NCBI RefSeq assembly: GCF_030013205.1
Contig: NZ_CP122648.1
From: Escherichia coli
GTDB lineage: Bacteria > Pseudomonadota > Gammaproteobacteria > Enterobacterales > Enterobacteriaceae
Length of the DNA: 64,000 nucleotides
Direction: 5' to 3' (one strand)
Both the position numbers and the translations under genes were made by a program. The notes under the pieces were generated by a model. The model saw nothing but the letters and a program-made list of their open reading frames with translations. It did not search any database and was not told where the DNA came from. This document shows, piece by piece, positions 4,413-47,885 of the stretch (its first letter is position 1; every line of letters starts with the position of its first letter).

Positions 4413-5585
4413 TTAGCCAGCGTTAGCTTTTACGATATCGTCGATCAGTTTATTGACAGGTGCCAGGCTGATTTCACGCGCGGTGCTTACCGCTACCGGT
4501 GTGGAACGTACTTTATTTGCCAGTACCTGACCGTCACGGTTAGTGGTATTGACGCTCACCAGCGTGGACAAACCGATACGCAGCGGGTATTGCTCGAGCT
4601 GTTTCTGGTCCAGTTCAATACGAACAGGCAGACGCTGAACGACTTTGATCCAGTTACCGGTCGCATTTTGCGCCGGAAGCAGTGAGAACGCGCTACCTGT
4701 GCCCATATCCAGACCAACCACTTTACCGGTGTATTTCACATCATCGCCGTAAATATCCGTGGTGATAGTGACCGGCTGACCGATACGCATATTGGCAATC
4801 TGCGTCTCTTTAAAGTTGGCATCCACCCACATATTGGTGGCTGGAACGACCGCCATCAGCGGCGTCGTTGGGCTAATTTGTGCCCCAGGCTGTACCGCGC
4901 GGCGGGAGACATAACCGGTCATCGGACTGACAATACGAGTACGCTCCAGCGCCAGCCAGGCGTTACGTACTTCGGTGGCAGCCTGTTGCACGGCAGGCTG
5001 ATCTTCCAGTTTAGTCCCCAGAATCATCGCCTGATTGGCATTGTATTGTTGAATAGCGACGTCCAGTTGTGCCTGGGCACTGGTGACGGCGTCGCGGGCG
5101 TGTTGCAGCTCTTCGCGACCAATCAGGTTGGCATTGCCCAGCGGCACACGGCGGTTGTAGTCGCTTTGTGCTTTCGCGAGGGCGATTTTTTGCACCTCAA
5201 TATTCGCCTGCAACTGTTTGCTGTTAATCATCAGCTGGTGGGTTTGGCGAACGCTTGAAGCCAGTGCAGTTTTGGCTTTTTCAAACGCCTGGCGAGCATC
5301 TGTCGGGTCGAGAGTGACCAGCACGTCGCCTTCTTTTACAAAATCGGTGTTATCGGCCCAGACTTTCGTCACGCTGCCAGACACCTGAGACATAATTTGA
5401 ATCTGATTCCCTGCCACGTATGCGTCATCGGTTTCTTCGAAATGACGCAGTACTAAAAACCAATAAATCCCTATCGCTACGGCAATAATTATAAAGAGCA
5501 AGGTGAGAAGGAGGAGCAGACGCTTACGTTTGCCGCTCTTCTTTACCGGTTGCTGCGGGGTTTGAGTCTCCGCATTTGCGCTCAT
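4413..5585 (-). CDS. emrA: Multidrug efflux membrane fusion protein EmrA
   Basis: 390 aa from MSANAETQTPQQPVKKSGKRKR…; HlyD-like periplasmic adaptor; conserved emrRAB order. Confidence 0.95.
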   Translation of the reverse strand: MSANAETQTPQQPVKKSGKRKRLLLLLTLLFIIIAVAIGIYWFLVLRHFEETDDAYVAGNQIQIMSQVSGSVTKVWADNTDFVKEGDVLVTLDPTDARQAFEKAKTALASSVRQTHQLMINSKQLQANIEVQKIALAKAQSDYNRRVPLGNANLIGREELQHARDAVTSAQAQLDVAIQQYNANQAMILGTKLEDQPAVQQAATEVRNAWLALERTRIVSPMTGYVSRRAVQPGAQISPTTPLMAVVPATNMWVDANFKETQIANMRIGQPVTITTDIYGDDVKYTGKVVGLDMGTGSAFSLLPAQNATGNWIKVVQRLPVRIELDQKQLEQYPLRIGLSTLVSVNTTNRDGQVLANKVRSTPVAVSTAREISLAPVNKLIDDIVKANAG

Positions 5586-5712
5586 ATTGTTCTCCACGAT
5601 CTTCTTAACTCATCGGCTGAGCCGACCTGCTTGCCAAAAAAGGCCAGCATGTTGCGATGCTGGCCAGTCATTTTTTCTTTTATAAATCTGGATTTTTGAG
5701 CGAGATGACGCG

Positions 5713-6243
5713 TTAGCTCATCGCTTCGAGAACCACACCGTCTTGTTCCATCTGGTCGAGACGGGAGAGCAATTTGCGGGTGATTTGCTCGAGCTGATCT
5801 TTTTCTGTTGTGCTGAGCGCGGACCAGAGTTGATGCAGGCAGTTATGCTGCGGTGGTAAAACCTCGCGCAAAAACTCGTGACCTTTTTCCGTTAATTGCA
5901 GATGCAGGCAGCGGCGATCGTTATCGCTTTCACGACGTTCGATCCAACCGCGTTTTTCCAGTTCATCGGCAATACGCGTCGCGTTGGTACGGGATGATCC
6001 AAGAGCACAACTCAATTCAGAAGGCTGAATACTGTGGTTTTCCTGAGACTCCAGCGTAATCAACGCCATAAACAACGTCTCGTTAATCCCCTGAGCCTTC
6101 AGCATTTTATTGCGGTTCTCCAGCAGCTTGCTTTGCATGTGCATGCAAAGACGAGTCAGAAGGATCTCCTGATAAGGAAAATCTTCGTGGCGGCTGGCGC
6201 GAAATTTTAGCATTTGTTCAATGGGCGTAAACGAACTATCCAT
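5713..6243 (-). CDS. mprA: MarR-family repressor of emrAB (EmrR/MprA)
   Basis: 176 aa, MarR winged helix; sequence matches remembered MprA. Confidence 0.95.
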
Positions 6244-11271: not shown

Positions 11272-12466
11272 TATTTACCCCCTCACGATCTAAAGCGCGC
11301 AGCAGCATTCCTTTCGAAATGATGCCGACATACTGTTGGTCCTCATCGACCACGGGCACCGCACAGGGGGCCTGTCCGACATGAGAGAGCAACTCGCTAA
11401 GAGGCGTTTGTGCATCGACCGCTAACGGCGCATCAATCAGCGCCGCATCAAGACCTTGCTGCTGCGTTAACGCGGCTTTAAGCGAATCGATAGACACAGC
11501 GCCGACAAACTTATTACCGCGTTCGATGACGTAGCCATATTCGCGATCTTCATCCTGCAATAATTTCAGTGCCGAACGCGGGCCGAAGCCGGGGGTTTTA
11601 CGAATTAAGCCGTTCGGTGTACGACGGGCAATATCTTTCGCACTGAACACCTGGCTAATATCGACGCCACGGAAGAAGGTACGGACATAATCATTCGCCG
11701 GATTATTGAGAATTTCATCCGGTGTGCCGACCTGTACCACTTCACCATTTTGCATAATGGCAATTCGGTCGCCAATACGCATGGCTTCATCGAGATCGTG
11801 GGAAATAAAGACAATGGTGCGCTGATGTTTCGCCTGTAATTTTACCAGCTCATCCTGCATCTCGGTGCGAATTAATGGATCGAGTGCTGAGAAGGCTTCG
11901 TCCATTAATAATATATCCGGATTAATCGCTAACGCGCGGGCTAATCCCACACGTTGACGCATCCCGCCAGAGAGTTCATCCGGGTAGCTGTGGGCATAAT
12001 TTTCCAGCCCGACCTGACGCAGTGCATCAAGGGCTTTTTCCCGGCGTTCTTCGGCATTAATTCCGGCCAATTCCATACCGAATGCAGTATTGTCCAGCAC
12101 GGTCATATGCGGCATTAAGGCAAAGGACTGGAAGACCATCGCAATCTTTTTTCTGCGCACCTCACGGAGTTCGGCGTCGGATATTTTGGCAATATCCACA
12201 CCATCAATCAGCACTTGCCCGCGGGTGGGTTCAATCAGGCGATTGAGAAGGCGTACCATTGTGGATTTACCCGAACCGGATAATCCCATGATGACAAATA
12301 TCTCGCCTTCTTCAATGGCCAGACTGGCGTCTTTTACGCCAAGCGATAGCCCAGTTTTTTCCAGAATTTGTTCTTTTGAAAGTCCTTGTTCGATATATTT
12401 GAAAGCTCGCTGTGGATGCTCACCAAATATTTTATAAAGATTTTTAATTTCTAATTTAATTGCCAT
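11264..12466 (-). CDS. proV: Glycine betaine/proline ABC transporter ATPase
   Basis: 400 aa; Walker [13 protein letters not shown] signature LSGGMRQR, C-terminal CBS domains. Confidence 0.95.
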
Positions 12467-12822: not shown

Positions 12823-13791
<969 letters not shown>

Positions 13792-15936
13792 TTAAAGTGC
13801 ACACGAGACGCAGCCTTCAATTTCAGTGCCTTCCAGCGCCATCTGACGCAGGCGGATGTAATAGAGCGTTTTGATACCTTTGCGCCAGGCGTAAATCTGC
13901 GCTTTGTTGATATCGCGAGTGGTGGCGGTATCGGGGAAAAACAGCGTCAGCGACAGCCCCTGATCGACATGGCGAGTCGCTTCCGCGTAAGTGTCGATGA
14001 TCTTTTCTGCGCCAATTTCGTAAGCGTCCTGATACAGCGCCAGATTCTCGTTAGTCATAAACGGGGCAGGGTAGTAAACGCGTCCTGTTTTGCCCTCTTT
14101 GCGTATCTCTACTTTCGCCACAATCGGATGAATACTCGACGTAGCATGGTTGATATAAGAGATAGAACCGGTTGGCGGCACCGCCTGAAGATTCTGGTTG
14201 TAAATGCCGTAGCGCATCACGTCGTCGCGCAGCTGCGCCCACATCTCACGGGTAGGTAACGTAATACCGCTACGGGTAAACAGTTCGCCAACTTTCGCCG
14301 TTTTCGGCTGCCAGTTCCCTTGCAGATATTGGCTAAAATATTCACCACTGGCATAGCGTGACTGTTTGAACCCGGCGAAGGTTTCACCGCGTTCGCGCGC
14401 CAGCAACATCGAGGTACGCAGTGCGTGCCAGGTGATGGTATAGAAATAGAGATTGGTGAAATCCAGTGCTTCCGGCGACCCATAAGCGATGCCTTCTCGC
14501 GCCAGATAGCCGTGTAAATTCATCTGCCCCAGTCCGATGGCGTGTGAGGCGGCATTTCCGGCTTCGATGGACGGCACGCTGCGGATATGACTCATATCTG
14601 ATACTGCCGTTAAACCGCGCACGGCAGTCTCTACCGTGCGGGCAAAGTCGGGGGAATCCATGGTGTGGGCAATATTCAACGAACCTAAATTGCAGGAAAT
14701 ATCATGGCCTGTGCGGGCATAGTCGAGATTCTCGTCATACTCTGAGGCGCTGTTAACCTGCAAAATTTCTGAGCAGAGATTGCTCATATTTATGCGCCCG
14801 GCGATAGGGTTAGCACGGTTAACCGTGTCTTCATACATGATGTAGGGATAGCCGGACTCAAACTGGATTTCTGCCAGTCGCTGGAAGAAATCACGGGCGT
14901 TGATGTATTTTTTGCGGATGCGTTCATTGGCAACCAGTTCGGCATAGTGTTCACTGATGGCGATATCAGCAAACGGCTTGCCATAAACCCGCTCAACGTC
15001 ATAAGGCGAAAACAGTGCCATCTGCGCATTCTCTTTTGCCAGATGGAAAGTGATATCCGGGATCACCACGCCCAGCGACAGTGTTTTAATGCGGATTTTC
15101 TCGTCGGCATTTTCCCGTTTCGTATCGAGAAAACGCAGAATATCGGGATGATGGGCATGTAAATAGACTGCCCCAGCCCCCTGACGCGCGCCGAGCTGGT
15201 TGGCATAGGAAAATGCGTCTTCCAGCATTTTCATCACCGGAATCACGCCAGATGATTGATTTTCAATACGTTTAATTGGCGCGCCCGCTTCTCGCAGATT
15301 CGACAGCAAAAATGCCACGCCGCCGCCGCGTTTCGACAGTTGCAGTGCGGAATTTACCGCCCGGCCAATCGACTCCATGTTGTCTTCAATACGCAGCAAA
15401 AAACAGGAAACCAGTTCGCCGCGCTGCTGCTTACCACAGTTGAGGAATGTCGGTGTTGCAGGCTGAAAGCGTCCTGACAGCATCTCATCGGTCAGTTGCG
15501 TCGCCAGTGTTTCATCGCCTTGTGCCAGCATCAGCGCCATCATCGTGACTCGATCGGCAAAATCTTCCAGATAACGCTTACCGTCGAATGTCTTCAACGT
15601 ATAGCTGGTGTAAAACTTCCATGCTCCGAGGAATGTCTGAAAACGAAAACCGCTGGCGTGTGCGTGGGCAAACAGCGTAATGACAAAATCGCGAGAGTAG
15701 CGGTTGAGGACGTTTTCATCATAGTAACCTTCGTTGACTAGCCAGTTCAGGCGCTGCTGCTGGCTACTGAAGGTCACACTGTTCGGACGCACATGTGTCG
15801 CCATAAAGGCGTCAACGGCCTGGCGATCTTTATCGAACTGAATGCGACCTGCGCTATCGTAAAGGTTAAGCATCGCATTCAGCGCGTGGTAATCCATCGT
15901 TTCCTGCGTCAGGCGTTCTGCGGTTGTCGTTGCCAA
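13792..15936 (-). CDS. nrdE: Class Ib ribonucleotide reductase alpha subunit
   Basis: 714 aa; RNR large subunit with C-terminal redox Cys pair. Confidence 0.95.
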
Positions 15937-34877: not shown

Positions 34878-37800
34878 TCATTTTCCTAATTCTCCAGCTA
34901 AAAGTTCAGCCTGCTTCAAAACAGTCTCTGTGGCGAGCAATGACATATCAGGCGGATAACCATATTTTTTGAGCAGACGTTTTACCACCACGCGAATTTT
35001 TGCTCTTGCTGCTTCTTTCACTGTCCAGTCAAGACTGACATTGTTGCGGATAGCCTCCGTAAGTACGACTGCCAGTTCTCGTAGTTTTTCCTTTTCCATT
35101 AACTCGCGAGCACTGTCGTTATCTGCAACAGCAGAATAGAAGGCATATTCATAAGCGCTGAGGTTTAACTGGCTGGCAAGGCTGTCAGATTCCTGGATAG
35201 TCTTGGCAAGCTTGATTAGCTCATCAATTACCTCCGCTGCGGTCAGTACCTTGTTCTGGTAGCCATTGATTGCAGAGGTCAGCATATCAATCAGTTTTTT
35301 GCCTTGGGTGATACTTTGATTCGAGCGAACCTTGATCTCGTCAGAAAGCAGTTTTTTAAGCGTTTCCAAAGCAATATTTCTGTGTTGGTAATCCTTCATT
35401 TCCTGAAGGAATTCTTCAGAAAGAACGGAAATATCAGGTTTTTGTATCCCAGCAGCGTCAAAAATATCAACAACTTTATCGGTAACCAGAGCCTGATCGA
35501 TAGTCTGTTTTACCCGAACTTCGAGACTGTCATTGTGTTCTTCTTCTGATCCGTCTGAGTTTTCAGTAAATTTATTCAGTCTGGCTTTTACTGCCTGGAA
35601 GAATGCTACTTCGGGTGCCGCTTCCATTGCTTTATCGTGCGGTGTCGCCAATGCAAATGCCTGCGATAAGGCTGCAACCGCAGCGAGGAAACGCATTTTA
35701 CCTTTACCGTTATCCAGCCCTAAAATATGGTTTTCTGATTCAAGAATAATTGTCAGGCGTTGTGAGGTAGTTGCGGCAAAGTAAGCTTTGTAATCGTATC
35801 CATGCATCATGCCTTCCAGGATTTCCAGCTTTTCCTGCATGAGCGTTACGGCTTCTTCCTGAACCTCAGCAGGATCTCCACGTCCACCTGCATCAGAGTA
35901 AAAGGAGAGGGCTTCTTTTAAATCAGAGGCAATGCCCAGATAGTCAACAACCAGACCGCCTATCTTATCTTTATACACACGGTTCACACGGGCAATTGCC
36001 TGCATAAGGTTGTGGCCTTTCATTGGTTTGTCGATATACAGCGTATGCATGCTGGGAGCGTCGAAGCCGGTTAACCACATATCACGCACTATCACCAGTT
36101 TCAGCTTGTCGTCGTCATCCTTCATACGGTTAGCCAGAACCTGACGTTCTTTTTTTGTGGTGTGGTGTTTGGCAATTTCTGGCCCGTCAGCAGCAGAAGA
36201 GGTCATGACGACTTTTATTATACCGTCATTTAAATCATCGCTGTGCCATTCAGGTTTTAAGGCTATGATTTCTTTATATAGTTCAGCAGCAATACGGCGG
36301 GACATGGTAACAATCATGCCCTTACCATGATCGGCATTGGATTTTAAGCGCTGCTCAAAGTGCAGAACCATATCCGCCGCAATCGCTTTAATACGTTTTG
36401 AACTGCCAATCAAACCTTCGATTCTGGCCCATTTAGAACGTTCTTTTTGCGTGAGCGTCAGTTCGTCCTCGTTAAACTCATCATCAAAGTCTTCAATAAG
36501 CTGACGACCTTCATCACTGATGGCAATTTTGGCAAGACGGCTTTCATAAAAGATACGAACTGTTGCACCATCTTCAACGGCCTGCGAGATATCGTAGATA
36601 TCAACATAGTTACCAAAAACAGCAGGCGTGTTGACGTCCGTTTTTTCTATGGGGGTTCCGGTAAAGCCGAGATAGGTCGCATTAGGTAAGGCATCACGCA
36701 TATATTTGGCAAAGCCGTAAACGGTGCGTTTACCTGTTACGTTGCCTTCGCTGTCTTTCACGTCAACTTCTTTGGCGCTGAAACCGTACTGGGAACGGTG
36801 TGCTTCATCAGCGATAACGACAATATTGGTTCTGTCTGACAACAACTCATAGATATTGCTGCCATCATCAGGCTGGAATTTTTGAATAGTAGTAAACACC
36901 ACACCGCCAGAGGCGACACGCAAATATTCTTTGAGTTCTTCCCGGTTGTTGGCCTGTTTTGGTGTCTGACGAAGTAGCTGGGTCGCGGAAGAGAACGTAC
37001 CGAATAGCTGATCATCTAAGTCGTTACGGTCAGTAATCACAACAACTGTCGGATTATCCAGCGCCAGCACAATTTTCCCGGTATAAAACACCATCGAAAG
37101 CGATTTACCGGAACCCTGAGTATGCCAGACTACGCCCGCTTTGCGATCTCCGGTTTTTTGCGCATTAACAAGATCTTTACTGTTACGTCCCTGCTGGCGC
37201 AGTGCCACTTCGGCAGAGGGGGAGTCCGCATTCACCGCTGAGGCACGAATAGTGGAAAGAACTGCTGCATTGACCGCGTAGTACTGGTGATAAGCCGCCA
37301 TTTTTTAACAGTACGGATACTGATAATCCCTTTGCTGTCTTCATGTTTGCTGGCCTCAAACACGATAAAGTGGCGGATTATATCCAGCAGCGTTACAGGA
37401 TTAAGCAACCCCTGTAATAAAACTTCAAGCTGTGGTTGGGTACTGGTGGCTTGCGTTTTACCGTTAGCAGTTTTCCACGTCATATAACGACTGAAATCGG
37501 CAGAAACCGTCCCCGCTTTGGCTTCCAGCCCGTCAGATATCACATTAAAAGCATTGTAGTTAAACAGACCGGGGATTTGGTTCTGATAGGTTTTAATCTG
37601 ATTATAGGCACCTGTTACCGTTGCATTTTCGTCAGCGGCATTTTTAAGTTCGATAACGACTAATGGCAGGCCATTGATGAATAAAATAAGATCAGGTCGG
37701 CGGGTATGGTTGCCTTCTTTGATGGTGAGCTGATTAATGACCAGAAATGCATTATTAGTGGGATCGTTAAAGTCGATCAGGCTGGCCAGTTCTCCTTGTG

Positions 37801-38116
37801 TATTACCATCCTTGCTGACTTCGATATTGATTCCTTCGGTCAAAAGGCGATGAAAGGTTAGATTGTTTGCCATTAGGTCAGGTGAGCTGATCTGCATCAC
37901 CTGTTTTAGAGCTTCTTCACACTTCTGCTCACTAAGGTGCGGGTTAATTCGTTGCAATGCTGTACGCACTTTATCTTCAAGGATAACCTGCTGATAGCTA
38001 CGTAACGGATTGATTCCACTGGGTTCAATGTCCGGGCCGTAAACATACTCATAGCCCAGCCCTTGCAGGTGCTCAATTGCCATTACTTCAATATCGGATT
38101 CGGTCATCTTTGCCAT
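34878..38116 (-). pseudogene. hsdR: Type I restriction enzyme R subunit HsdR, disrupted by a frameshift in an A6 tract
   Basis: Two overlapping minus-strand ORFs (37232..38116 N-terminal part; 34878..37301 C-terminal part with DEAH box [14 protein letters not shown]); frames switch at the AAAAAA run at 37295-37300; restoring A7 gives continuous …[20 protein letters not shown]…. Confidence 0.8.
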
Positions 38117-41400: not shown

Positions 41401-42508
41401 CGTTTTAGCAGGGACAACTCCAGTATTCAAAAAAGCTTTCTTAGTGCATATGCATGAGGTGAATAGATGTACAGGCTATGACAAACCATAGTTGTAATTT
41501 TTAATGTTTAAAATTCTCCGTTACAGTAGGACATTCCTTGTACATTAAATTCCATCTAAGGTTGAATTTTTAATTTAATAAGGTCGCAATCTAAAATGAT
41601 GTGTATGGGGTTATTTGTAAGATGATTTTTTATTTTTGATAGTGGTGATTAAGGGAGCGGGTAATGTTTGTCTATTCAAAAATATAGAGATTCAAGGTTG
41701 GTAGCAGTTTGGCTTCTTTTATAACCGAAGGGCAGAAAAGCAAGGGGAACTCGAAGAAGCAAGCGCAGCGGCTTCGCAGAGTTAGCCCTTGCTTCTCTTA
41801 TAATTGGCATTATTCATTCAAGAACAATAGGATCTTCGCTTGTACAAGCGAAGCTATAATAAAAACAATCAATTAATAATTTTAAAAGTATTAAACAAGA
41901 ACCTATTGACATTCATAAAATACAAGTTATTTATAATGTATGCCATAAATAAAAAGTTTTATGTCATATGTATCCTGCACTATGTGCAGTTAATGTACCA
42001 CTTGTCCCATAGATGGGAATATTGGAAAGGTTACTTTGTTTTGAAGTAGCCTTTCGTCCTTCAATATTAACGATTACTTATTGCTATTACCAAGTCCAGT
42101 CGAATCGAAGAACATCTTTTATCTGAAACGACTCCTAATACCCGGTTAAAGCCACAATATCTCTCGCATACGTAGACCAAAGAAAAATTATGATATTAAC
42201 TATGTGATTTTTTTTAGTGTTAAGTTGAATAATTAAATACTGGAGAGTTTTCTGTGCACTACCAATTGCTGGTTCATCTGTTCTGCCGCTGATGTTTCTG
42301 ACGAATCTCCCGGTGACACAGAACTGTCCCTCTCTACCAGCCTTTATTCGACTCAATGTCCGGCTGCTGATACGCAGTTATCCCTTCGTATCAATGACTG
42401 ACACTTAAACGTAATGCTTTGGTTGCTGGCGTATCTGACAGCTTCTTCGGCGTGAAGGTCGTTGTGTAAGTATACTTCTTGGTTTATTTAGGCTATATAA
42501 AACCATGA

Positions 42509-43405
42509 CTATGACTTGCTGTTTTCAGTAAGAGTCTTATCATCCAAAGAATTTATTCTAGAAATTCTTTTTAACTCATTAAGATAATCAACCTCGTTTT
42601 CTAAGAACCAATGAAGAACTTTAGAATTGCCAAGTAATTTATTAATATATGACTGGATTATAACGAATTTCAACATATCTGAACCATACTCGGTTTGAAG
42701 CTTTTTCGTTTCTTCCGAAGTTGTTGCCATTTCTTGTTCCAGACGAAGTATGGTTTTTTTTATGTCCTTTTTATAGGGAGTGTTTTTCCCTTTATTTACT
42801 ATCATCGATGCCGGTGTTGCATCCAAGATGCTCATTGCAAATTTTTTACTATAATTATCAAAATTAATCATTGTACCGACTGCTTCAATTTGGCGAATTG
42901 GCTTCATTTTCCTCAAAACGTCAAATGTAGCCTTAGGTATAGGTTTATCAGAAAGTTTCGCAATTACACTTGGATCTATGCCGTTCATCACATTCGCTTT
43001 ATCTTTTATGGCATCAACAGATATGCCCAAAGCAGCACTAAGTTTTTCAATTGATACTTTTGCCAGAGACTTAATTATCATTCTATGTTCTTCAACTACA
43101 TTTATATGATTCACTTGTTTGTTAGGAGTGAAAGCATCATCTATGCTCGAAAGTATACATGGAGCTTTTTCTATACCTAAGTCTTTTAAAGCCTCAACCC
43201 TTAAATGGCCATCAAGTATCTTAGTGACATCTTTATCTTTGTCATAGAATACTATTATTGGTTCAATAATACCTAAGCTTTCGATAGAGGTAACTATTTG
43301 ATGATATTTATGGCTTCGCTTTACGTTTTCTAATAATTCCTTAGATGGAATTAACTTATTAGTTTCCAGGTAAATAAAATTATCGCCAAAACGTATCTGA
43401 ATCAT
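42509..43405 (-). CDS. ParB/Srx-fold protein (ParB N-terminal-like domain), function unknown
   Basis: 298 aa; ParB-like GxxR-containing segment …IIVFYDKDKDVTKILDGHLRVEALKDLGIEKAPCIL…; start overlaps upstream gene stop by 4 nt. Confidence 0.6.
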   Translation of the reverse strand: MIQIRFGDNFIYLETNKLIPSKELLENVKRSHKYHQIVTSIESLGIIEPIIVFYDKDKDVTKILDGHLRVEALKDLGIEKAPCILSSIDDAFTPNKQVNHINVVEEHRMIIKSLAKVSIEKLSAALGISVDAIKDKANVMNGIDPSVIAKLSDKPIPKATFDVLRKMKPIRQIEAVGTMINFDNYSKKFAMSILDATPASMIVNKGKNTPYKKDIKKTILRLEQEMATTSEETKKLQTEYGSDMLKFVIIQSYINKLLGNSKVLHWFLENEVDYLNELKRISRINSLDDKTLTENSKS

Positions 43406-44298
43406 TTTAATACCTCTTTGTTTACTGGGGTTAATATCTGAGATGGTAGTTCTGAAAGATTCTCTTGTTCAAGTATATGTTGAAAGCTTTTATTTATCAT
43501 TATGATGTTAAAAATCTCATTTACTATTAGTAGGTTGGTTTTTATGAATTTTGAGTTGTTATAAACAGATTTATGTTCAGCGATACTATTTTCATAAAGC
43601 TCAATCAACTCCTCTGCAGTCATCCTTTTTGATGGTTTGTGATAATAAAATCCGGCTGCTTTTGCACCTTTATTCCCAACTGTTCTTTGATTTAGAATGT
43701 GTTTTATCTTTATAATGTCCCGACTTTTTATTAATTTTTTATCATATGCTTCGGTAAGAATATCTTGTGCTTCCTCAGTTTCACATCTTGCAAATTGCAC
43801 TGCGAGATACAGAGGCAAATTACCCCGTTCGACTGCTGAGAGAAGTTTATGCTCTCCCTTATCAAGTAGCATATTAATACTGCTCACCCAGTTCGATGAA
43901 TATCCAGTAATCTCACTTATTTCGGAGTCTGAAAGTCCTCTGATTTTCATGTCTTTAATCACCTGTAATAACTCATTAGAACGTGGTCTTCTCCTTGCAA
44001 TGTTTTCAACTAAACTCATAACGTAAGCATCTTCTTCTGATACATCTCTTATAATTGCTGGAATAATAGTTTCACCTAATGCAACGAGAGCCTCTATTCT
44101 CCCTTGACCACAAATTAAAGCATATTTGAAATCGCCTTCATCAATAGCTCTTACGCTTATTGGCTTGCTTAATCCTCTTTTTTTTATGCTTTCCTTTATT
44201 TCTTCATGCACTACCTTATTTCTTGTTCGTGGGTTAAGAAATTTTATTTTTGCAATCTCAATTTGAATTATTGGGAATTCATTTTTTTCAGGCAGCAT
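43402..44298 (-). CDS. ParB/Srx-fold protein with HTH, function unknown
   Basis: 298 aa; ParB N-terminal-like segment …FLNPRTRNKVVHEEIKESIKKRGLSKPISVRAIDEGDFKYALICGQGRIEALVALGETIIPAIIRD… then HTH-like region; GQGR replaces the canonical GERR box; overlaps recombinase gene by 11 nt. Confidence 0.65.
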   Translation of the reverse strand: MLPEKNEFPIIQIEIAKIKFLNPRTRNKVVHEEIKESIKKRGLSKPISVRAIDEGDFKYALICGQGRIEALVALGETIIPAIIRDVSEEDAYVMSLVENIARRRPRSNELLQVIKDMKIRGLSDSEISEITGYSSNWVSSINMLLDKGEHKLLSAVERGNLPLYLAVQFARCETEEAQDILTEAYDKKLIKSRDIIKIKHILNQRTVGNKGAKAAGFYYHKPSKRMTAEELIELYENSIAEHKSVYNNSKFIKTNLLIVNEIFNIIMINKSFQHILEQENLSELPSQILTPVNKEVLK

Positions 44299-45844
44299 AT
44301 AGTTCCCTCACTTTCATGCGAGTAATAATTTGTAGAAGTTTATCAAGATTATCAAATCTATAGAGATCTAATCGAATGTTGTTTGTTTCCGTCATGCACA
44401 TTTTATTATATTCGTTTTCAATCTTTGGTATGATATAAAAATCAAGAGGTGAAATATTTTGTGAATTCATTCGTATAACAATTGTTATGTCTGCTTTCTG
44501 TGAGTTATCAAACCGGACTTTCCATCTAAGTTTACCTGATTTCATATGTATGCATTTAGTAACAAGGACGGAAATTAAAAACTCATCATTGATGTAAAGC
44601 ATTGGGGCATATTTATACTCGTCTATATGACAGTTACTTTTTAAAATTTCACCCTTAAAATCCTCAATTATCTCTGAGTAAAATGATCTTAGTGCTTCAT
44701 TTATTTTGAGATAGCTGTAATCATGTTCTGGCTTATAACCAATCAAAGTATATGCTCTTAAAAGACCACCAAATCGGGTTCTATAAACAGAAGATGAAGG
44801 GCCTGTATCATCTTCATCAATGATAAAGCCTGATAGTTTTCCATTAGATTCTAATTTTTGTTTTAGTTTTTCTAATAGATCTTCATTAGTCAAATGAATG
44901 GATCGGAGCTGAATTATTTCTTGAGCTTTATTGTATTTTTTCTTTGAAATAATAGGTTTATATGCCTTGTCACATCTAACCCATTCATGTTTGGGGTTTT
45001 TTACAAGCCTACTTTTTAATTTAGATGAGGTTTTGTTATATATGTTGTTTCCAATATATTTTTCATTTGTCAAAATTTGATGTATTTTTGCACGAGTCCA
45101 TAATGTTCCATTTTCTGCAGGTATGTTCTGTTCATTTAATCTCTCAGCAATAATGAATTCTGGGACGTTATTATCTATAAAGAGATCATATATTCTATTT
45201 ACAATTTTTATTTCATTTTTTGGTCCCGGAATTAATATTACCCTATCTGTTTGAATACTCTTTCTTTTGCGGAAACTCAATATTTCTTTAGCTATGCCAT
45301 TTTCGTCTACTAAAAGACGTCTCAGCCCATAACCAGCCATACCGCCTTGATGATAACCAAGCTTTATTAAATTTACTTGCCCTATAAATACCTTTTCAGA
45401 TAGATTCCTGCTGTGATATGCAGCACTAGATCTTTTTATATTCAGTATAACAGAGGACTCTAAAGGGAAATCTTTAGTGGGTATAGGTTCGGAACAATAT
45501 ATAAGATCTACACCATTTCTCTCAAATAGAAAGGAATAATATGCCGCTTCATCACTATTTTGAAAACGACCAAAACGGCTCACATCATAAAATAATACAG
45601 CCTGTATATCTATTTTCTTTTGTTCTACATCGCTAAGTAACTGCTGCAAAGAATGCCTGCCTACGATACTGACTCCGCTCTTACCTGCATCATCGTAGGT
45701 ATAAGCGATTTCCATATTGTTCTTTTCAGCATAATCTTTGATATATTCGGACTGATTATGTAAAGAATATTGCTGATGGTCGGTAGACATCCTCAAGTAC
45801 TGCGCGACCCTAACTCTATGATTTTTGTCATTTTCGCTAGCCAT
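44288..45844 (-). CDS. Large serine recombinase (resolvase/invertase catalytic domain plus recombinase domain)
   Basis: 518 aa; motifs YLRMSTDHQ (catalytic Ser), DDAGKSG, YDVSRFGR, and recombinase-domain WTRAKIHQILTNEKYIGNNIY. Confidence 0.75.
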   Translation of the reverse strand: MASENDKNHRVRVAQYLRMSTDHQQYSLHNQSEYIKDYAEKNNMEIAYTYDDAGKSGVSIVGRHSLQQLLSDVEQKKIDIQAVLFYDVSRFGRFQNSDEAAYYSFLFERNGVDLIYCSEPIPTKDFPLESSVILNIKRSSAAYHSRNLSEKVFIGQVNLIKLGYHQGGMAGYGLRRLLVDENGIAKEILSFRKRKSIQTDRVILIPGPKNEIKIVNRIYDLFIDNNVPEFIIAERLNEQNIPAENGTLWTRAKIHQILTNEKYIGNNIYNKTSSKLKSRLVKNPKHEWVRCDKAYKPIISKKKYNKAQEIIQLRSIHLTNEDLLEKLKQKLESNGKLSGFIIDEDDTGPSSSVYRTRFGGLLRAYTLIGYKPEHDYSYLKINEALRSFYSEIIEDFKGEILKSNCHIDEYKYAPMLYINDEFLISVLVTKCIHMKSGKLRWKVRFDNSQKADITIVIRMNSQNISPLDFYIIPKIENEYNKMCMTETNNIRLDLYRFDNLDKLLQIITRMKVRELYAA

Positions 45845-46126
45845 GCACGAAACCTCATGGATGATTCAATACAATGTAGTGGATAAAATTGATCAAATTT
45901 CAACCGAATTCAACTGTTTTATCATTGATTAGAGCGAATTTGGTAGATCTTCGAGGTGTATGATAATCGAGAAGAGATGTGAATTATTTAGCTGATATGA
46001 CCGACAGCTTTCGTTATGTGGACTCAATGTCCCCATTTGTAAATGGCTATGCTTAGTCCACATAGGTTAATGGTGTGATTATTAATTCTTTAACTAAATC
46101 AAGATAGTTAATCCATCATGGGAGAG

Positions 46127-47356
46127 TTATGCGGCCATAACTTTGCATTTTTGAGACGAAACATAGTCACTCCACCATTGCATGAGAACCACCCGTTCAG
46201 TGAGATACTCTGCACGATTGTAGGCTGCAATTATTTCATCTTTCTTCGAGTGGGCAAGGGCGGCTTCTAAGACATCAGTCCTAAACTTGCCAGACTCCTC
46301 AGCAGCCGTTCTAGCAATGGATCGCATACCGTGAGCTACAAGCTCACCTCCGAAACCCATACGGATTATGGCCGCATTAGCTGTTTGTTCATGCATGTGA
46401 TTGAGTGGAGCTTTGATACTGGGGAACACCCACTCTCTATGCCCGCTGATGACTTTCATTAAATCCAAAACTCGCAAAGCTTCTTTGCTCAGTGGAACTT
46501 TGTGAGGCTTCTTCATTTTCATAAACTCCGCCGGGATGTTCCACATGCCAGTTTCAATATCAATATCTGACCATCTTGTGCGAACAGCTTCACCTGGGCG
46601 AACCCATGTGAGAAGTTGCCACTCAATCAGTAGCCTTGTTTCCAAACGGATAGAAGCATTGTTTAGAGCAACCAAGAAGCGAGGGAGTTCGGAAGGGGGT
46701 AATGCTGGCATATTCTGTTTTTTTGGCTTGCTGAACCGTTGCCCCAGGTTGTCTGCCGGGTTGAATTCTATGAGTTCTTCTGTTGCTGCATAGCGGAAAA
46801 TTTCATTCAGGCGGGATATGATGCGGCGAAGTGTTTCAAGGACACCTCGTTTTTCTATGGGTTCTAAATGCTGTTTAAGCATTTTAGGGCGAATCTCCTT
46901 AATTGGGGTATCACCCAATGTGGAAAAGATATTTCTCTCTAGGCTTCGCCAGATGTCGTTAGCATGATCTTGGGAGATGCCTGACGTTTTGACTTTCTCA
47001 TCAAGCCACTTCTTGGCTACTGCTTGAAATGTATGTTCCGTGGCATCTTTCAGTGCATTGGCTTTTTGGTTGTTATGAACTTGGGGGTCTATACCATTTG
47101 TAAGCAACGACAAGTATTCATCACGTAAAGCTCGTGCCTTCGCAAGTGTAAGGTGAGGATAGGTTCCTAAGCTCACCTTAGTTCGCTTTTTGGTCACAGG
47201 CACTGCATATCTGAAATACCAATTTTTCTTCCCTCCCTTCGCCAGGGGAGCGATTCGCAACAGCAAACCATCGCCGTCAAAAAGGTTAACCTCTTTTTCG
47301 GCAGGTTTGGTGCTTTTGATTTCAGTGTCAGTGAGCTTCTTAGCGATTTTGGCCAT
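46127..47356 (-). CDS. int: P4-family tyrosine integrase next to ssrA
   Basis: About 409 aa from MAKIAKKLTDTEIKSTKPAEKEVNLFDGDGLLLRIAP…; C-terminal catalytic region with R…HGMRSIARTA…Y; ORF track extends 27 codons upstream. Confidence 0.9.
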   Translation of the reverse strand: MAKIAKKLTDTEIKSTKPAEKEVNLFDGDGLLLRIAPLAKGGKKNWYFRYAVPVTKKRTKVSLGTYPHLTLAKARALRDEYLSLLTNGIDPQVHNNQKANALKDATEHTFQAVAKKWLDEKVKTSGISQDHANDIWRSLERNIFSTLGDTPIKEIRPKMLKQHLEPIEKRGVLETLRRIISRLNEIFRYAATEELIEFNPADNLGQRFSKPKKQNMPALPPSELPRFLVALNNASIRLETRLLIEWQLLTWVRPGEAVRTRWSDIDIETGMWNIPAEFMKMKKPHKVPLSKEALRVLDLMKVISGHREWVFPSIKAPLNHMHEQTANAAIIRMGFGGELVAHGMRSIARTAAEESGKFRTDVLEAALAHSKKDEIIAAYNRAEYLTERVVLMQWWSDYVSSQKCKVMAA

Positions 47357-47522
47357 GTTTGGGACCCTCGATTTTAGGACCCATCTTCGTGGGTCCCATT
47401 CAGGGTGCCATAACTCGTAGTTCTCAGCAATTCTCACTAGACTACAATAGACGTAAAAAAGCCCGCAGAGCTTGTGCTGTGCGGGCTTAGTAGACTTTAC
47501 TGAACTTCAGTACATCAATATT

Positions 47523-47885
47523 TGGTGGAGCTGGCGGGAGTTGAACCCGCGTCCGAAATTCCTACGTCCTCGGTACTACATGCTTAGTCAGTCTTTACAT
47601 TCGCTTGCCAGCTGCGGACGGACACGCCACTAACAAACTAGCCTGATTAAGTTTTAACGCTTCAACCCCAGGCAGGGCTTCCACGCGATCTCTTTTGGGT
47701 TTGACCTCTCTTGATCCCCGTCCTAAGAGCGGAGGCTAGGGAGAGAGGGCTCTAAGCAGGTTATTAAGCTGCTAAAGCGTAGTTTTCGTCGTTTGCGACT
47801 ATTTTTTGCGGCTTTTTACGAGGCCAACCGCCCCTCGGCATGCACCTTGGGTTTCGCAAATCCCGTCGAATCCAGAATCAGCCCC
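47523..47885 (-). ncRNA. ssrA: tmRNA (SsrA, 10Sa RNA)
   Basis: Minus-strand sequence matches remembered E. coli tmRNA from GGGGCTGATTCTGGATTCGACGGG to …GCTCCACCA (363 nt). Confidence 0.95.

Follow-up and report, generated by a model that had tools for sequence, protein, structure and literature searches.

Large serine recombinases, such as PhiC31 Int-gp3, Bxb1 Int-gp47, SPbeta SprA-SprB, TnpX of Tn4451 and CcrAB of SCCmec, carry a zinc ribbon and a coiled coil that normally recognise the att sites and control the direction of recombination. Serine recombinases also occur in operons with a protein named ParB. The parCBA genes of RK2 form a resolvase operon in which ParA is a small resolvase, and ParB is a staphylococcal-nuclease-type protein rather than one with the ParB/Srx fold. 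In Dehalococcoides, the 'integration module' of the ssrA-GI is an operon at the ssrA-proximal island end that encodes a CcrB-like serine recombinase of ~540 aa and a ParB-domain protein (PMC3146451). Its six genes encode DsiB, DsiA (a second, small serine recombinase), a RecF-like protein, a 210-aa ParBc protein, Mom and a large protein; the att/ssrA repeat is embedded in dsiB, and there is no tyrosine integrase (PMC3146451). ParB-type proteins may also act alone: a precedent is BisD of ICEclc, an orphan ParB-CTP clamp with a regulatory role on an integrative element (PMC12409273).

The locus described here lies in a stretch of 64,000 nucleotides of Escherichia coli DNA (contig NZ_CP122648.1), called the window below. 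It comprises three genes, for a serine recombinase (SR) and two ParB-type proteins (ParB-A and ParB-B), with the following features in and around them.

44288..45844, minus strand: SR, an atypical large serine recombinase of 518 aa (Pfam, PHROG, AF2, Foldseek)
44291..44899, minus strand: C-terminal region of SR, aa 316-518, with a predicted restriction-endonuclease/Holliday-junction-resolvase-like PD-(D/E)xK fold
43402..44298, minus strand: ParB-A, 298 aa (Pfam, TIGR00180, PDB profile search)
42509..43405, minus strand: ParB-B, 298 aa (Pfam; weak Noc/SerK matches)
42461..42508, minus strand: tail of the conserved block 3' of the ParB-B stop, 48 nt (blastn)
45845..46126, minus strand: promoter-side intergenic region upstream of the SR gene, 282 bp (sequence)
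46127..47437, minus strand: P4-type tyrosine integrase of the ssrA island, outside the trio and given as context (ORF; annotated as an integrase in L001, see below)
47523..47885, minus strand: ssrA (tmRNA), where the island is integrated, given as context (ARAGORN; Rfam tmRNA, 292.8 bits)

The SR and ParB-A genes overlap by 11 nt, and the ParB-A and ParB-B genes by 4 nt. This matches exactly the three minus-strand genes of a sequence-only reading of this DNA, and the motifs quoted there (YLRMSTDHQ, DDAGKSG, YDVSRFGR, WTRAKIHQILTNEKYIGNNIY, GQGRIEA and DGHLRVEA) are all found in the translations. The trio region has 31-36% GC, compared with ~50% in its flanks. A Type I R–M locus lies ~1.6 kb from the trio, with an IS remnant between the trio and hsdM. 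Neighbours were taken from the 43-kb annotation of L001, a locus identical to the trio of the window. GC content, ssrA, the P4-type integrase and this annotation agree on an AT-rich, tmRNA-associated island beside a Type I R–M system and IS remnants, as had been described. The 43-kb annotation around L001 contains no ParA and none occurs among the window ORFs around the trio, so the locus is not a classical partition cassette, again as had been argued. Rfam gave zero matches in the operon or in the tail conserved among Alphaproteobacteria.

A ParB-A profile has at least 600 matches, and 80 loci were fetched with it from species-representative genomes. The order SR, ParB-A, ParB-B and the orientation of the genes are the same in all 80, and therefore the grouping is far above chance. 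Lack of conserved co-occurrence, which the sequence-only reading had named as grounds for refutation, is decisively contradicted. Protein lengths are conserved, as are the junctions, which are overlaps or abutments; the earlier view of a translationally coupled operon is borne out. The reverse test on plasmids likewise finds the genes together (52 versus 59 records, with adjacent coordinates). The loci come from Gamma-, Beta- and Alphaproteobacteria, Acidobacteria and Geobacter, and most carry an additional, divergent HTH gene; outside the enterobacteria the module is one of four genes, with a divergent HTH regulator. The reading from the letters alone had missed this fourth gene.

The module is found on chromosomes and on large plasmids, pAtC58 among them, and next to genes for a T4SS or a relaxase; some genomes have two or three copies. 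Plasmid carriage is rare (protein matches in 52 of 72,556 plasmid records), a single protein match was obtained among 50,697 phage records, in a record that is itself a piece of a bacterial genome, and searches of phages and plasmids at the DNA level gave no match to the trio. A prophage-type setting, in a phage genome or among phage genes, was not found for the module, nor did any ParA-like neighbour family recur across the 80 loci. A prophage or plasmid partition/resolution cassette is rejected on these grounds. A 7.4-kb 'phage' record that might have been a small free replicon proved to be a bacterial genome fragment. With PADLOC-DB v2, SR was unmatched, and the sole match of the ParB proteins was to a Type II methyltransferase model, in its ParB-like part. 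Neither a name nor a described function for the trio was found in the literature searched, in agreement with the earlier failure to match it to a named system. The trio is thus confirmed as a tightly conserved, widely spread and hitherto unnamed module of genomic islands and large plasmids.

Within E. coli, the trio is present in 654 of 5426 complete genomes (~12%), including an intact copy in BL21. It is always single-copy and lies directly beside a P4-type integrase in the same kind of place. Values of dN/dS of 0.04-0.11 show strong purifying selection. In two loci, L003 and L004, the tyrosine integrase is a pseudogene and the trio is intact and still under purifying selection. The E. coli copy is the first gene set after the ssrA-island integrase and is selected independently of it. 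Alignments (blastn) of the window with L003 and L004 end at 42461 and 42458, respectively, beyond which the E. coli island variants differ in cargo. Clean sites without the trio were sought in E. coli and only IS1 and IS2 events were found; none of the 654 genomes shows a sign of trio excision, the only changes being IS-mediated. A function that benefits the host would explain such strong selection on an immobile chromosomal copy no less well than a selfish one.

SR is a large-serine-recombinase-type enzyme, as the sequence-only reading had it. The Pfam Resolvase (1.4e-21) and Recombinase (PF07508; 1.2e-21) domains are both present, and the best PHROG match is phrog_95 'integrase' (2.7e-69). 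The catalytic domain spans approximately aa 14-152 and, after a long alpha-E helix as in large serine recombinases, the recombinase domain spans approximately aa 210-312 (Pfam, Foldseek). Across 39 homologues, residues Y16, R18, S20, D87, R90 and R93 do not vary. The AF2 model has a pLDDT of 81, and its closest structures by Foldseek are integrases of phages and ICEs, the best being SprA, Bxb1 and PhiC31, with ~336 residues aligned. The C-terminal part is different. Zn_ribbon_recom is unmatched by Pfam and the SR sequence lacks a Cys cluster, and the model contains no coiled coil; instead, it has a helical region with one long helix (aa ~320-402) followed by a beta-rich domain (aa ~405-518) that matches the PD-(D/E)xK fold. 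In the model this domain appears to have the alpha-beta-beta-beta-alpha-beta core of that superfamily, and it is predicted to be a PD-(D/E)xK-like domain (Hjc/restriction-enzyme-like) where integrases have the zinc ribbon and coiled coil. In its nuclease-like motif, P451-D452 and D468 are conserved and R458 is invariant, but the +2 position is a Tyr and the canonical Lys is absent. The domain had escaped the reading from the letters alone.

ParB-A matches Pfam ParB_N (5e-13) and RepB (1.4e-7), exceeds the cutoff of TIGR00180, and in a PDB profile search finds Spo0J first (1e-18), then Noc, ParB and KorB. By sequence, it is a ParB of the Spo0J/Noc/KorB kind: a domain of the NTP-binding type comes first, then an HTH/RepB region, then a C-terminal region. 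Of the ParB N-domain motifs, nearly all are retained; NPRxRN, GL..P, CGQGRxE and ENIARR are invariant, with the P-motif C-G-Q-G-R-x-E replacing GERRxRA. ParB-B matches RepB (2.9e-24) and ParB_N (2.6e-5), Noc and SerK giving weak matches, and its family has 513 representatives at E<=1e-30. Its N-domain is of the ParB/Srx kind but diverged (L-D-G-x-x-R, Y-N-K-x-x-N-R, Q-E-H-R-M), and a RepB-type region comes after it; L-D-G-x-x-R is invariant, and the canonical GERRxRA CTP-binding box is absent. ParB-A thus appears to be clamp-type with an altered nucleotide box, and ParB-B its diverged 'DGxxR' paralogue. That the locus encodes two ParB/Srx-fold proteins with non-canonical GxxR boxes had been noticed earlier and holds across the family. 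An HTH had been assigned to only one of them, whereas Pfam and NCBIfam find a ParB/Srx domain and an HTH in both, the RepB region following the N-domain in each. Gene fusions of SR and ParB were considered as evidence of interaction and discarded, the long matches being SR-ParB-B chimeras without ParB-A that are probably artefacts or deletions.

A candidate DNA site lies in the 282-bp region upstream of the SR gene. This 16-bp imperfect palindrome, AAATTTGATCAATTTT, at 45885-45900, occurs once in the window with no further copies. Its A5-TGATCA-T5 core is kept in loci of Erwinia and Citrobacter, although protein identity there is down to 45-50%, and the remaining spacer has diverged; other lineages have different palindromes at -55 to -136. 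Partition systems have clustered parS centromere sites; the one candidate seen in the window is this palindrome upstream of the SR gene. It may be an operator or a ParB loading site, and a single palindrome per locus is what either an operator or a recombination site would show.

The module has crossed between genera as a sharply bounded block. Geobacter sulfurreducens and Trichlorobacter lovleyi share a block of 3,851 bp at 90.6% identity, whereas its flanks are unrelated, and a block of ~4.35 kb is common to alphaproteobacterial loci with differing flanks. The module occurs at island ends, on plasmids, or solo between housekeeping genes, as in Stenotrophomonas, where it is a solo unit between hutU and dxs. 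In G. sulfurreducens, it lies at the end of an island inserted at tRNA-Asn, for which empty sites are known; toward the far end of this island, only empty sites or more cargo were found. No site was found that lacks the module alone rather than the whole island. At the block ends, no att-like repeats, recombination cores or target duplications were detected, nor any convincing terminal inverted or direct repeats; the borders coincide with the ends of genes and terminators. Ordinary recombination between related islands could also give such borders. Two further ideas were dropped. Insertion into the 3' end of the tyrosine integrase gene with a surrogate end finds no empty site in E. coli, and a flank repeat occurs in 2 of 67 other loci; in L003 and L004, 244 bp just downstream of ParB-B repeat the int 3' end at 80% identity, for which a tandem-island remnant is the simpler reading. 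Adjacency to a tRNA is not a general rule, with a tRNA within 10 kb in only 5 of 60 loci.

The sequence-only reading had left three functions unranked: a self-mobilising mini-element, a ParB-type pair acting on foreign DNA, and a recombinase-controlled switch. The data speak more for a role in recombination or mobility than for defence or an inversion switch. Our tentative preference, held at somewhat less than an even chance, is that the trio serves mobile elements as a module for site-specific recombination under ParB control, horizontally spread and possibly self-mobile. The ParB pair would bind the lineage-specific palindrome at the operon promoter, act as a nucleotide-dependent switch that autoregulates the operon, and recruit or license SR. 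SR would then perform site-specific recombination at the module border, which would either move the module and attached DNA or resolve or rearrange the carrier element. This proposal is made because of the invariant synteny, the intact catalytic residues, the integrase-like structures, the block transfer, the genomes with several copies, the solo, plasmid-borne and island-end settings, the change of cargo just past ParB-B in three genomes and the upstream palindrome, and because purifying selection holds even beside a dead tyrosine integrase. A regulatory role for the ParB proteins is suggested by analogy with BisD as an orphan ParB-CTP clamp.

Defence against plasmids, other mobile elements or phages is the best of the alternatives, although unlikely. 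The ParB switches would sense or load on invading DNA, and SR with its nuclease-like domain would cut or scramble it. The module is indeed a compact cassette with a divergent regulator that is transferred between genomes as a unit, patchy in E. coli yet under purifying selection and essentially absent from phages, and the predicted PD-(D/E)xK-like domain would suit an effector. The 'typical defence-island context' noted earlier holds in E. coli, Geobacter and pAtC58 (Type I R–M, AbiE, McrBC, Fic). Neighbours of this kind comprise Type I R–M systems (the window, L001 and Geobacter), AbiE, McrBC/NERD, Fic, PIN, Dcm and DrmD-like helicases. The context does not extend to the wider sample, which is ordinary mobile or accessory DNA with many non-defence neighbours (T4SS, relaxase, LigD, efflux pumps, and housekeeping genes such as glyS, hutU and dxs). 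No PADLOC family matches and no paper on such a system was found in the literature searched, the nuclease motif is missing its Lys, and the complete integrase-type catalytic core and recombinase domain that are kept would be superfluous for a simple effector. Furthermore, E. coli B and BL21 are classical permissive hosts for T phages and are easily transformed with common plasmids, yet BL21 holds an intact copy.

Still less probable is a replicon stability cassette, in which SR would resolve multimers or cointegrates at a res-like promoter site and the ParB pair would provide partition-like positioning or silencing without a ParA. The layout of divergent gene, palindrome and recombinase recalls the res regions of Tn3-type elements, both ParB proteins have RepB-type regions, copies occur on large conjugative plasmids beside transfer genes, and the RK2 parCBA operon is a precedent. 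Against this, most copies are chromosomal, with the low plasmid count given above, and solo copies lie between housekeeping genes. There is no recurrent ParA-like neighbour family, pAtC58 already has its own repABC system, and SR is an integrase-type enzyme of the large serine class and not a small resolvase.

It is very unlikely that the trio supplies accessory or directionality factors that control excision of the ssrA island by the neighbouring P4-type tyrosine integrase. The trio always directly adjoins the integrase in E. coli, several Alphaproteobacteria have the order guaA, integrase, module, and integrases lie 1.5-3 kb from the module in Pluralibacter, Dickeya and locus L077, but a P4-like integrase is detectable within 10 kb in only ~15 of the 80 loci, in either orientation. 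The module also occurs solo or on plasmids without such an integrase, and it is intact and selected where the integrase is a pseudogene. An inversion (phase-variation) switch for neighbours such as hsdS can be dismissed as highly improbable: invertases exist among the serine recombinases and the Type I R–M locus is near, but no segment is bracketed by inverted repeats, the IS remnant separates the trio from hsdM, each lineage has different neighbours, and SR is of the large serine recombinase type rather than the Hin/Gin type.

A bolder idea, which we regard as rather doubtful, is that the trio is a new machine, a nucleotide-switched ParB heterodimer guiding a recombinase-nuclease fusion, that serves either as an island-end platform for cargo capture, an integron-like landing pad, or as immunity against plasmids and other mobile elements. 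Cargo capture is suggested because three Geobacteraceae genomes have different cargo starting no more than a few nucleotides past the ParB-B stop, as do E. coli variants within 48 nt of it.

Three uncharacterised genes are thus present in about an eighth of complete E. coli genomes, BL21(DE3) included, and in hundreds of species of several phyla. The module joins two active fields, the large serine recombinases used as tools for genome engineering and the ParB-type CTP/NTP switches. If the ParB pair licenses or targets SR, site-specific recombination would have a new mode of control, and islands a possible way of gaining cargo; if the module instead confers immunity, a standard laboratory strain would carry a new system of that kind. 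The apparent novelty lies in the modelled architecture of SR, in which a PD-(D/E)xK-like domain would replace the zinc ribbon and coiled coil; no report of a serine recombinase-PD-(D/E)xK fusion was found in the literature searched.

With the large serine recombinases named at the outset, SR shares the catalytic and recombinase domains. By analogy with those that have directionality factors, it may likewise rely on co-encoded partners, a dependence proposed for SR. It differs in having the PD-(D/E)xK-like domain instead of a Cys4 zinc ribbon and coiled coil, and its partners are two ParB-type proteins of 300 aa rather than a small RDF. In contrast to the PhiC31/Bxb1-type enzymes, the trio module is not found in phages. 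Compared with PD-(D/E)xK nucleases such as Hjc, I-Ssp6803I and Type II restriction enzymes, the SR domain lacks the lysine of (D/E)xK and is fused to a complete serine recombinase. The RK2/RP4 multimer-resolution operon parCBA likewise has three genes, encodes a serine recombinase and a 'ParB', and stabilises a mobile replicon; no sequence relationship between it and the trio was found. The likeness to the Dehalococcoides ssrA-GI module is confined to a large serine recombinase and a ParB-domain protein in an ssrA-island operon; the trio instead encodes a pair of ParB/RepB proteins, both full-length, and a P4-type tyrosine integrase sits at ssrA in E. coli. Finally, ParB-A shares with the orphan ParB-type CTP clamps (KorB of RK2, VirB of pINV, BisD of ICEclc, and Noc) the N-domain/HTH/C-terminal architecture, most of the N-domain motifs, a location on mobile DNA and the lack of a ParA partner. 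Where those proteins have GERR, ParB-A has GQGR and ParB-B has GHLR, and here the two form a fixed pair of paralogues in one operon with a recombinase.

Three overlapping minus-strand genes, encoding a serine recombinase (SR) and two ParB-type proteins (ParB-A and ParB-B), make up the unit analysed here. They lie beside a tyrosine integrase gene and ssrA, the tmRNA gene.

42509-43405, minus strand: ParB-B, 298 aa; Pfam ParB_N and RepB
43402-44298, minus strand: ParB-A, 298 aa; Pfam ParB_N and RepB
44288-45844, minus strand: SR, 518 aa; Pfam Resolvase and Recombinase
46127-47437: P4-type tyrosine integrase, adjoining the trio
47523-47885: ssrA, on the integrase side of the trio

The coordinates, the overlaps of 11 nt and 4 nt and the peptide motifs reported in the sequence-only reading were all recovered from the ORFs and translations. 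The GC content of the trio segment is 31-36% compared with ~50% in its surroundings, and the opposite flank holds an IS3 remnant and a type I R-M locus (window ORFs and the annotation of L001, an identical E. coli locus), so the AT-rich, tmRNA-linked setting beside R-M genes and IS remnants was correctly described. The claim that ParA is missing also holds, none being annotated across 43 kb of the 100%-identical L001.

In the window, hsdR (34878-38116) is broken up as a pair of overlapping ORFs, 34878-37301 (807 aa) and 37232-38116 (294 aa), whereas in the otherwise matching L001 it is an intact, single gene of 3240 nt; this strain may therefore have an R-M system deficient in restriction. The gap between ssrA and the start of the integrase gene (47455-47532), the att-side flank of the island, gives a sub-threshold Rfam match to the IsrM sRNA, which scores 46 bits where the gathering score is 376 and is probably without meaning.

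The association of the three genes extends far beyond E. coli. ParB-A homologues are found in many Enterobacterales and, at ~40% identity, in Geobacter. When one genome per species was scanned with a ParB-A profile, at least 600 stretches were matched, from which 80 loci were kept. A survey of this kind had been proposed from the sequence alone, and it found co-occurrence of the trio to be conserved: the order SR, ParB-A, ParB-B and the strand are constant in all 80 loci (tblastn), members being absent solely at contig ends or where a frameshift or an insertion splits them (L046, L086 and L087). Neighbouring genes overlap or abut, mainly by -4 or -1 nt, and lengths are narrowly distributed (SR 507-534, ParB-A 288-304 and ParB-B 286-322 aa). 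A ParB-B profile retrieved 513 cluster representatives at E<=1e-30 out of 1.84 billion. Among plasmid records, ParB-A occurs in 52 and the SR C-terminal domain in 59, with near-identical taxon profiles and adjacent coordinates, so the co-occurrence holds both ways. A fourth gene, a divergent ORF with an HTH-like core common to Alphaproteobacteria through Geobacter and matching no Pfam family, is present in 39 loci and absent from those of E. coli.

Two database proteins, P0236 (480 aa) and P0245 (508 aa), join a partial recombinase to the C-terminal two-thirds of ParB-B, skipping ParB-A; a deletion or an artefact of assembly is the probable origin of these, not a true fusion. Homologues of SR and ParB-A of proteobacterial type (36-38% identity) also occur at 4663-6077 of NZ_CP110863.1, a linear 13.5-kb record listed as a plasmid of Lactiplantibacillus plantarum, which is likely to be contamination or a mislabelled contig.

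Residues Y16, R18, S20, D87, R90 and R93 of SR are invariant in its homologues, and ~336 residues of its AF2 model (pLDDT 81) match the SprA, Bxb1 and PhiC31 integrases. The zinc ribbon and coiled coil are absent from SR. Its C-terminal domain, for which Pfam gave no match, has structural matches that include a long series of restriction enzymes and is predicted from the model to adopt a PD-(D/E)xK-like fold; the acidic residues (P-D452 and D468) are conserved at the expected places and the canonical lysine is missing. In AFDB, this domain is confined to unannotated ‘recombinase family’ proteins of 500-640 aa. The best-supported reading is that SR is an integrase-type serine recombinase that has lost the usual domain for site recognition and directionality.

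ParB-A, nearest to Spo0J, Noc, ParB and KorB, retains NPRxRN, box I and ENIARR, with C-G-Q-G-R-x-E replacing GERRxRA. ParB-B has an invariant set of its own (VEP, L-D-G-x-x-R, YNKxxNR and QEHRM) and resembles the Srx/SerK-like ‘DGxxR’ branch. Candidate DNA sites are offered by lineage-specific palindromes 55-136 nt upstream of the SR gene. The enterobacterial one, A5-TGATCA-T5, occurs once in the window (45885-45900) and is kept in loci whose proteins are 45-50% identical.

Of 5426 complete E. coli genomes, 654 carry the 3.3-kb trio segment, E. coli B/BL21 derivatives among them, in every case as a single chromosomal copy. The P4-type integrase always directly adjoins it, and the site is usually ssrA; in strain I2 the trio lies within a composite island at a tRNA-Arg gene beside yfdC. 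Cargo on the far side varies by strain: type I R-M in the window and L001, ypjA elsewhere, and IS1 alone in BL21. In a further island variant (L003 3932-11504 and L004 6478-11501) it comprises a His-Xaa-Ser (HxsABCD) radical-SAM system, a TIGR04141 ‘sporadically distributed’ protein and then a relaxase, an arrangement that therefore resembles an integrative mobilizable element. The variants stay homologous until 48 nt past the ParB-B stop and then diverge. A clean trio-less site was not found in E. coli, only changes mediated by IS1 or IS2.

Directly downstream of ParB-B in L003 and L004 (11660-11903 in both; just beyond window position 42461) lies a 244-bp, ~80% identical copy of the 3' end of the P4-type integrase gene, so that the trio is flanked by direct repeats in these lineages. 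The repeat is most simply a tandem-island remnant, and it could be the mark of an old insertion event.

For all three genes, E. coli alleles sharing 93-96% identity give dN/dS values of 0.04-0.11, although the tyrosine integrase beside the trio is a pseudogene in the lineages compared. The trio is therefore kept for its own sake, independently of the integrase. A role as an accessory to that integrase, its constant E. coli neighbour, is among the less likely explanations.

In Geobacter sulfurreducens, an island extending over >20 kb and inserted in the 3' end of a tRNA-Asn gene has the unit at one of its ends. Four empty sites were found there, and two occupied sites have the same unit with differing cargo, AbiE and type I R-M versus NERD and McrBC. 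A 3,851-bp block from this species recurs, 90.6% identical, in Trichlorobacter lovleyi between unrelated flanks. In three Geobacteraceae genomes, homology ends no more than a few nt from the ParB-B stop, after which the cargo differs. A near-perfect 17-bp palindrome, TTTTTCAG-G-CTGAAAAA, lies within the last ParB-B codons of Geobacteraceae, immediately before the divergence point:

L100, ~13770-13800: 17-bp palindrome
L101, ~13770-13801: 17-bp palindrome
L015, ~11740-11769: 17-bp palindrome

Alphaproteobacterial loci share a block of ~4.35 kb and are otherwise different, and several have guaA, a tyrosine integrase and the unit in that order. In many, ~200 nt downstream of ParB-B are better conserved than coding DNA (L032, 11835-12080; also L035, L038, L039, L041 and L044); the stretch ends in a terminator-like hairpin, carries a 31-aa reverse-strand ORF, MRGKPPLMRLDHMTTSLVGFVRVRRHSHHHA, and has no Rfam match.

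At other loci, the unit and an integrase 1.5-3 kb from it are convergent. It is flanked by AbiE and Fic genes on pAtC58; neighbours elsewhere include TrbI/VirB10, MobQ, LigD, PIN, Dcm, efflux genes and DrmD-like helicases. In one Stenotrophomonas species it stands alone, with hutU on one side and dxs on the other, and some genomes hold two or three copies. A tRNA lies within 10 kb at just 5 of 60 loci, and terminal repeats were sought at the block ends with no convincing case found. NHEJ genes occur within a few kb of the module on two unrelated replicons, two Ku and two LigD genes on pAtC58 (L110, 1-4880) and LigD in Pseudacidovorax (L027, 4316-6850), a proximity that may be due to chance or may reflect a functional tie to the processing of DNA ends.

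The best-supported interpretation takes the trio for a self-contained module that serves recombination and belongs to mobile DNA. SR, with its nuclease-like domain, would act jointly with the two ParB-type nucleotide switches, with the possible outcome that the module moves with attached cargo or, alternatively, that a host element is resolved or rearranged; the sites, nucleotide use, protein contacts and products of this model are all ones that we infer. The main rival is a defence system, as the neighbourhood and the cassette behaviour of the trio would suggest. The broad sample of neighbours counts against it, as do the fully conserved integrase core and the known permissiveness of BL21, a carrier of the trio, as a host. 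A stability role, in resolution or in something partition-like, is less likely. The sequence-only reading was right that this is not a classical partition cassette, as ParA is absent and the boxes are non-canonical, which rules out ParABS. Its option of a recombinase-controlled switch fails, there being no inverted repeats and varying neighbours, so an invertase switch is rejected.

Searches of phage DNA and proteins ruled out a phage module, the Dehalococcoides ssrA-GI module differs in composition, and the trio matches no PADLOC system. The literature searched, including a 2025 survey of ParB folds and a 2026 survey of genomic islands, contains no description of the module; an accession turns up just once, mentioned in passing by a paper on an Stx2l prophage. 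The trio is a genuine, strongly non-random and widespread feature that carries no name. It seems to us rather unlikely to be of a categorically new kind, either a system for ParB-guided capture of cargo or a novel form of immunity. The component families are known; relative to the literature searched, their combination and the architecture of the recombinase are new.
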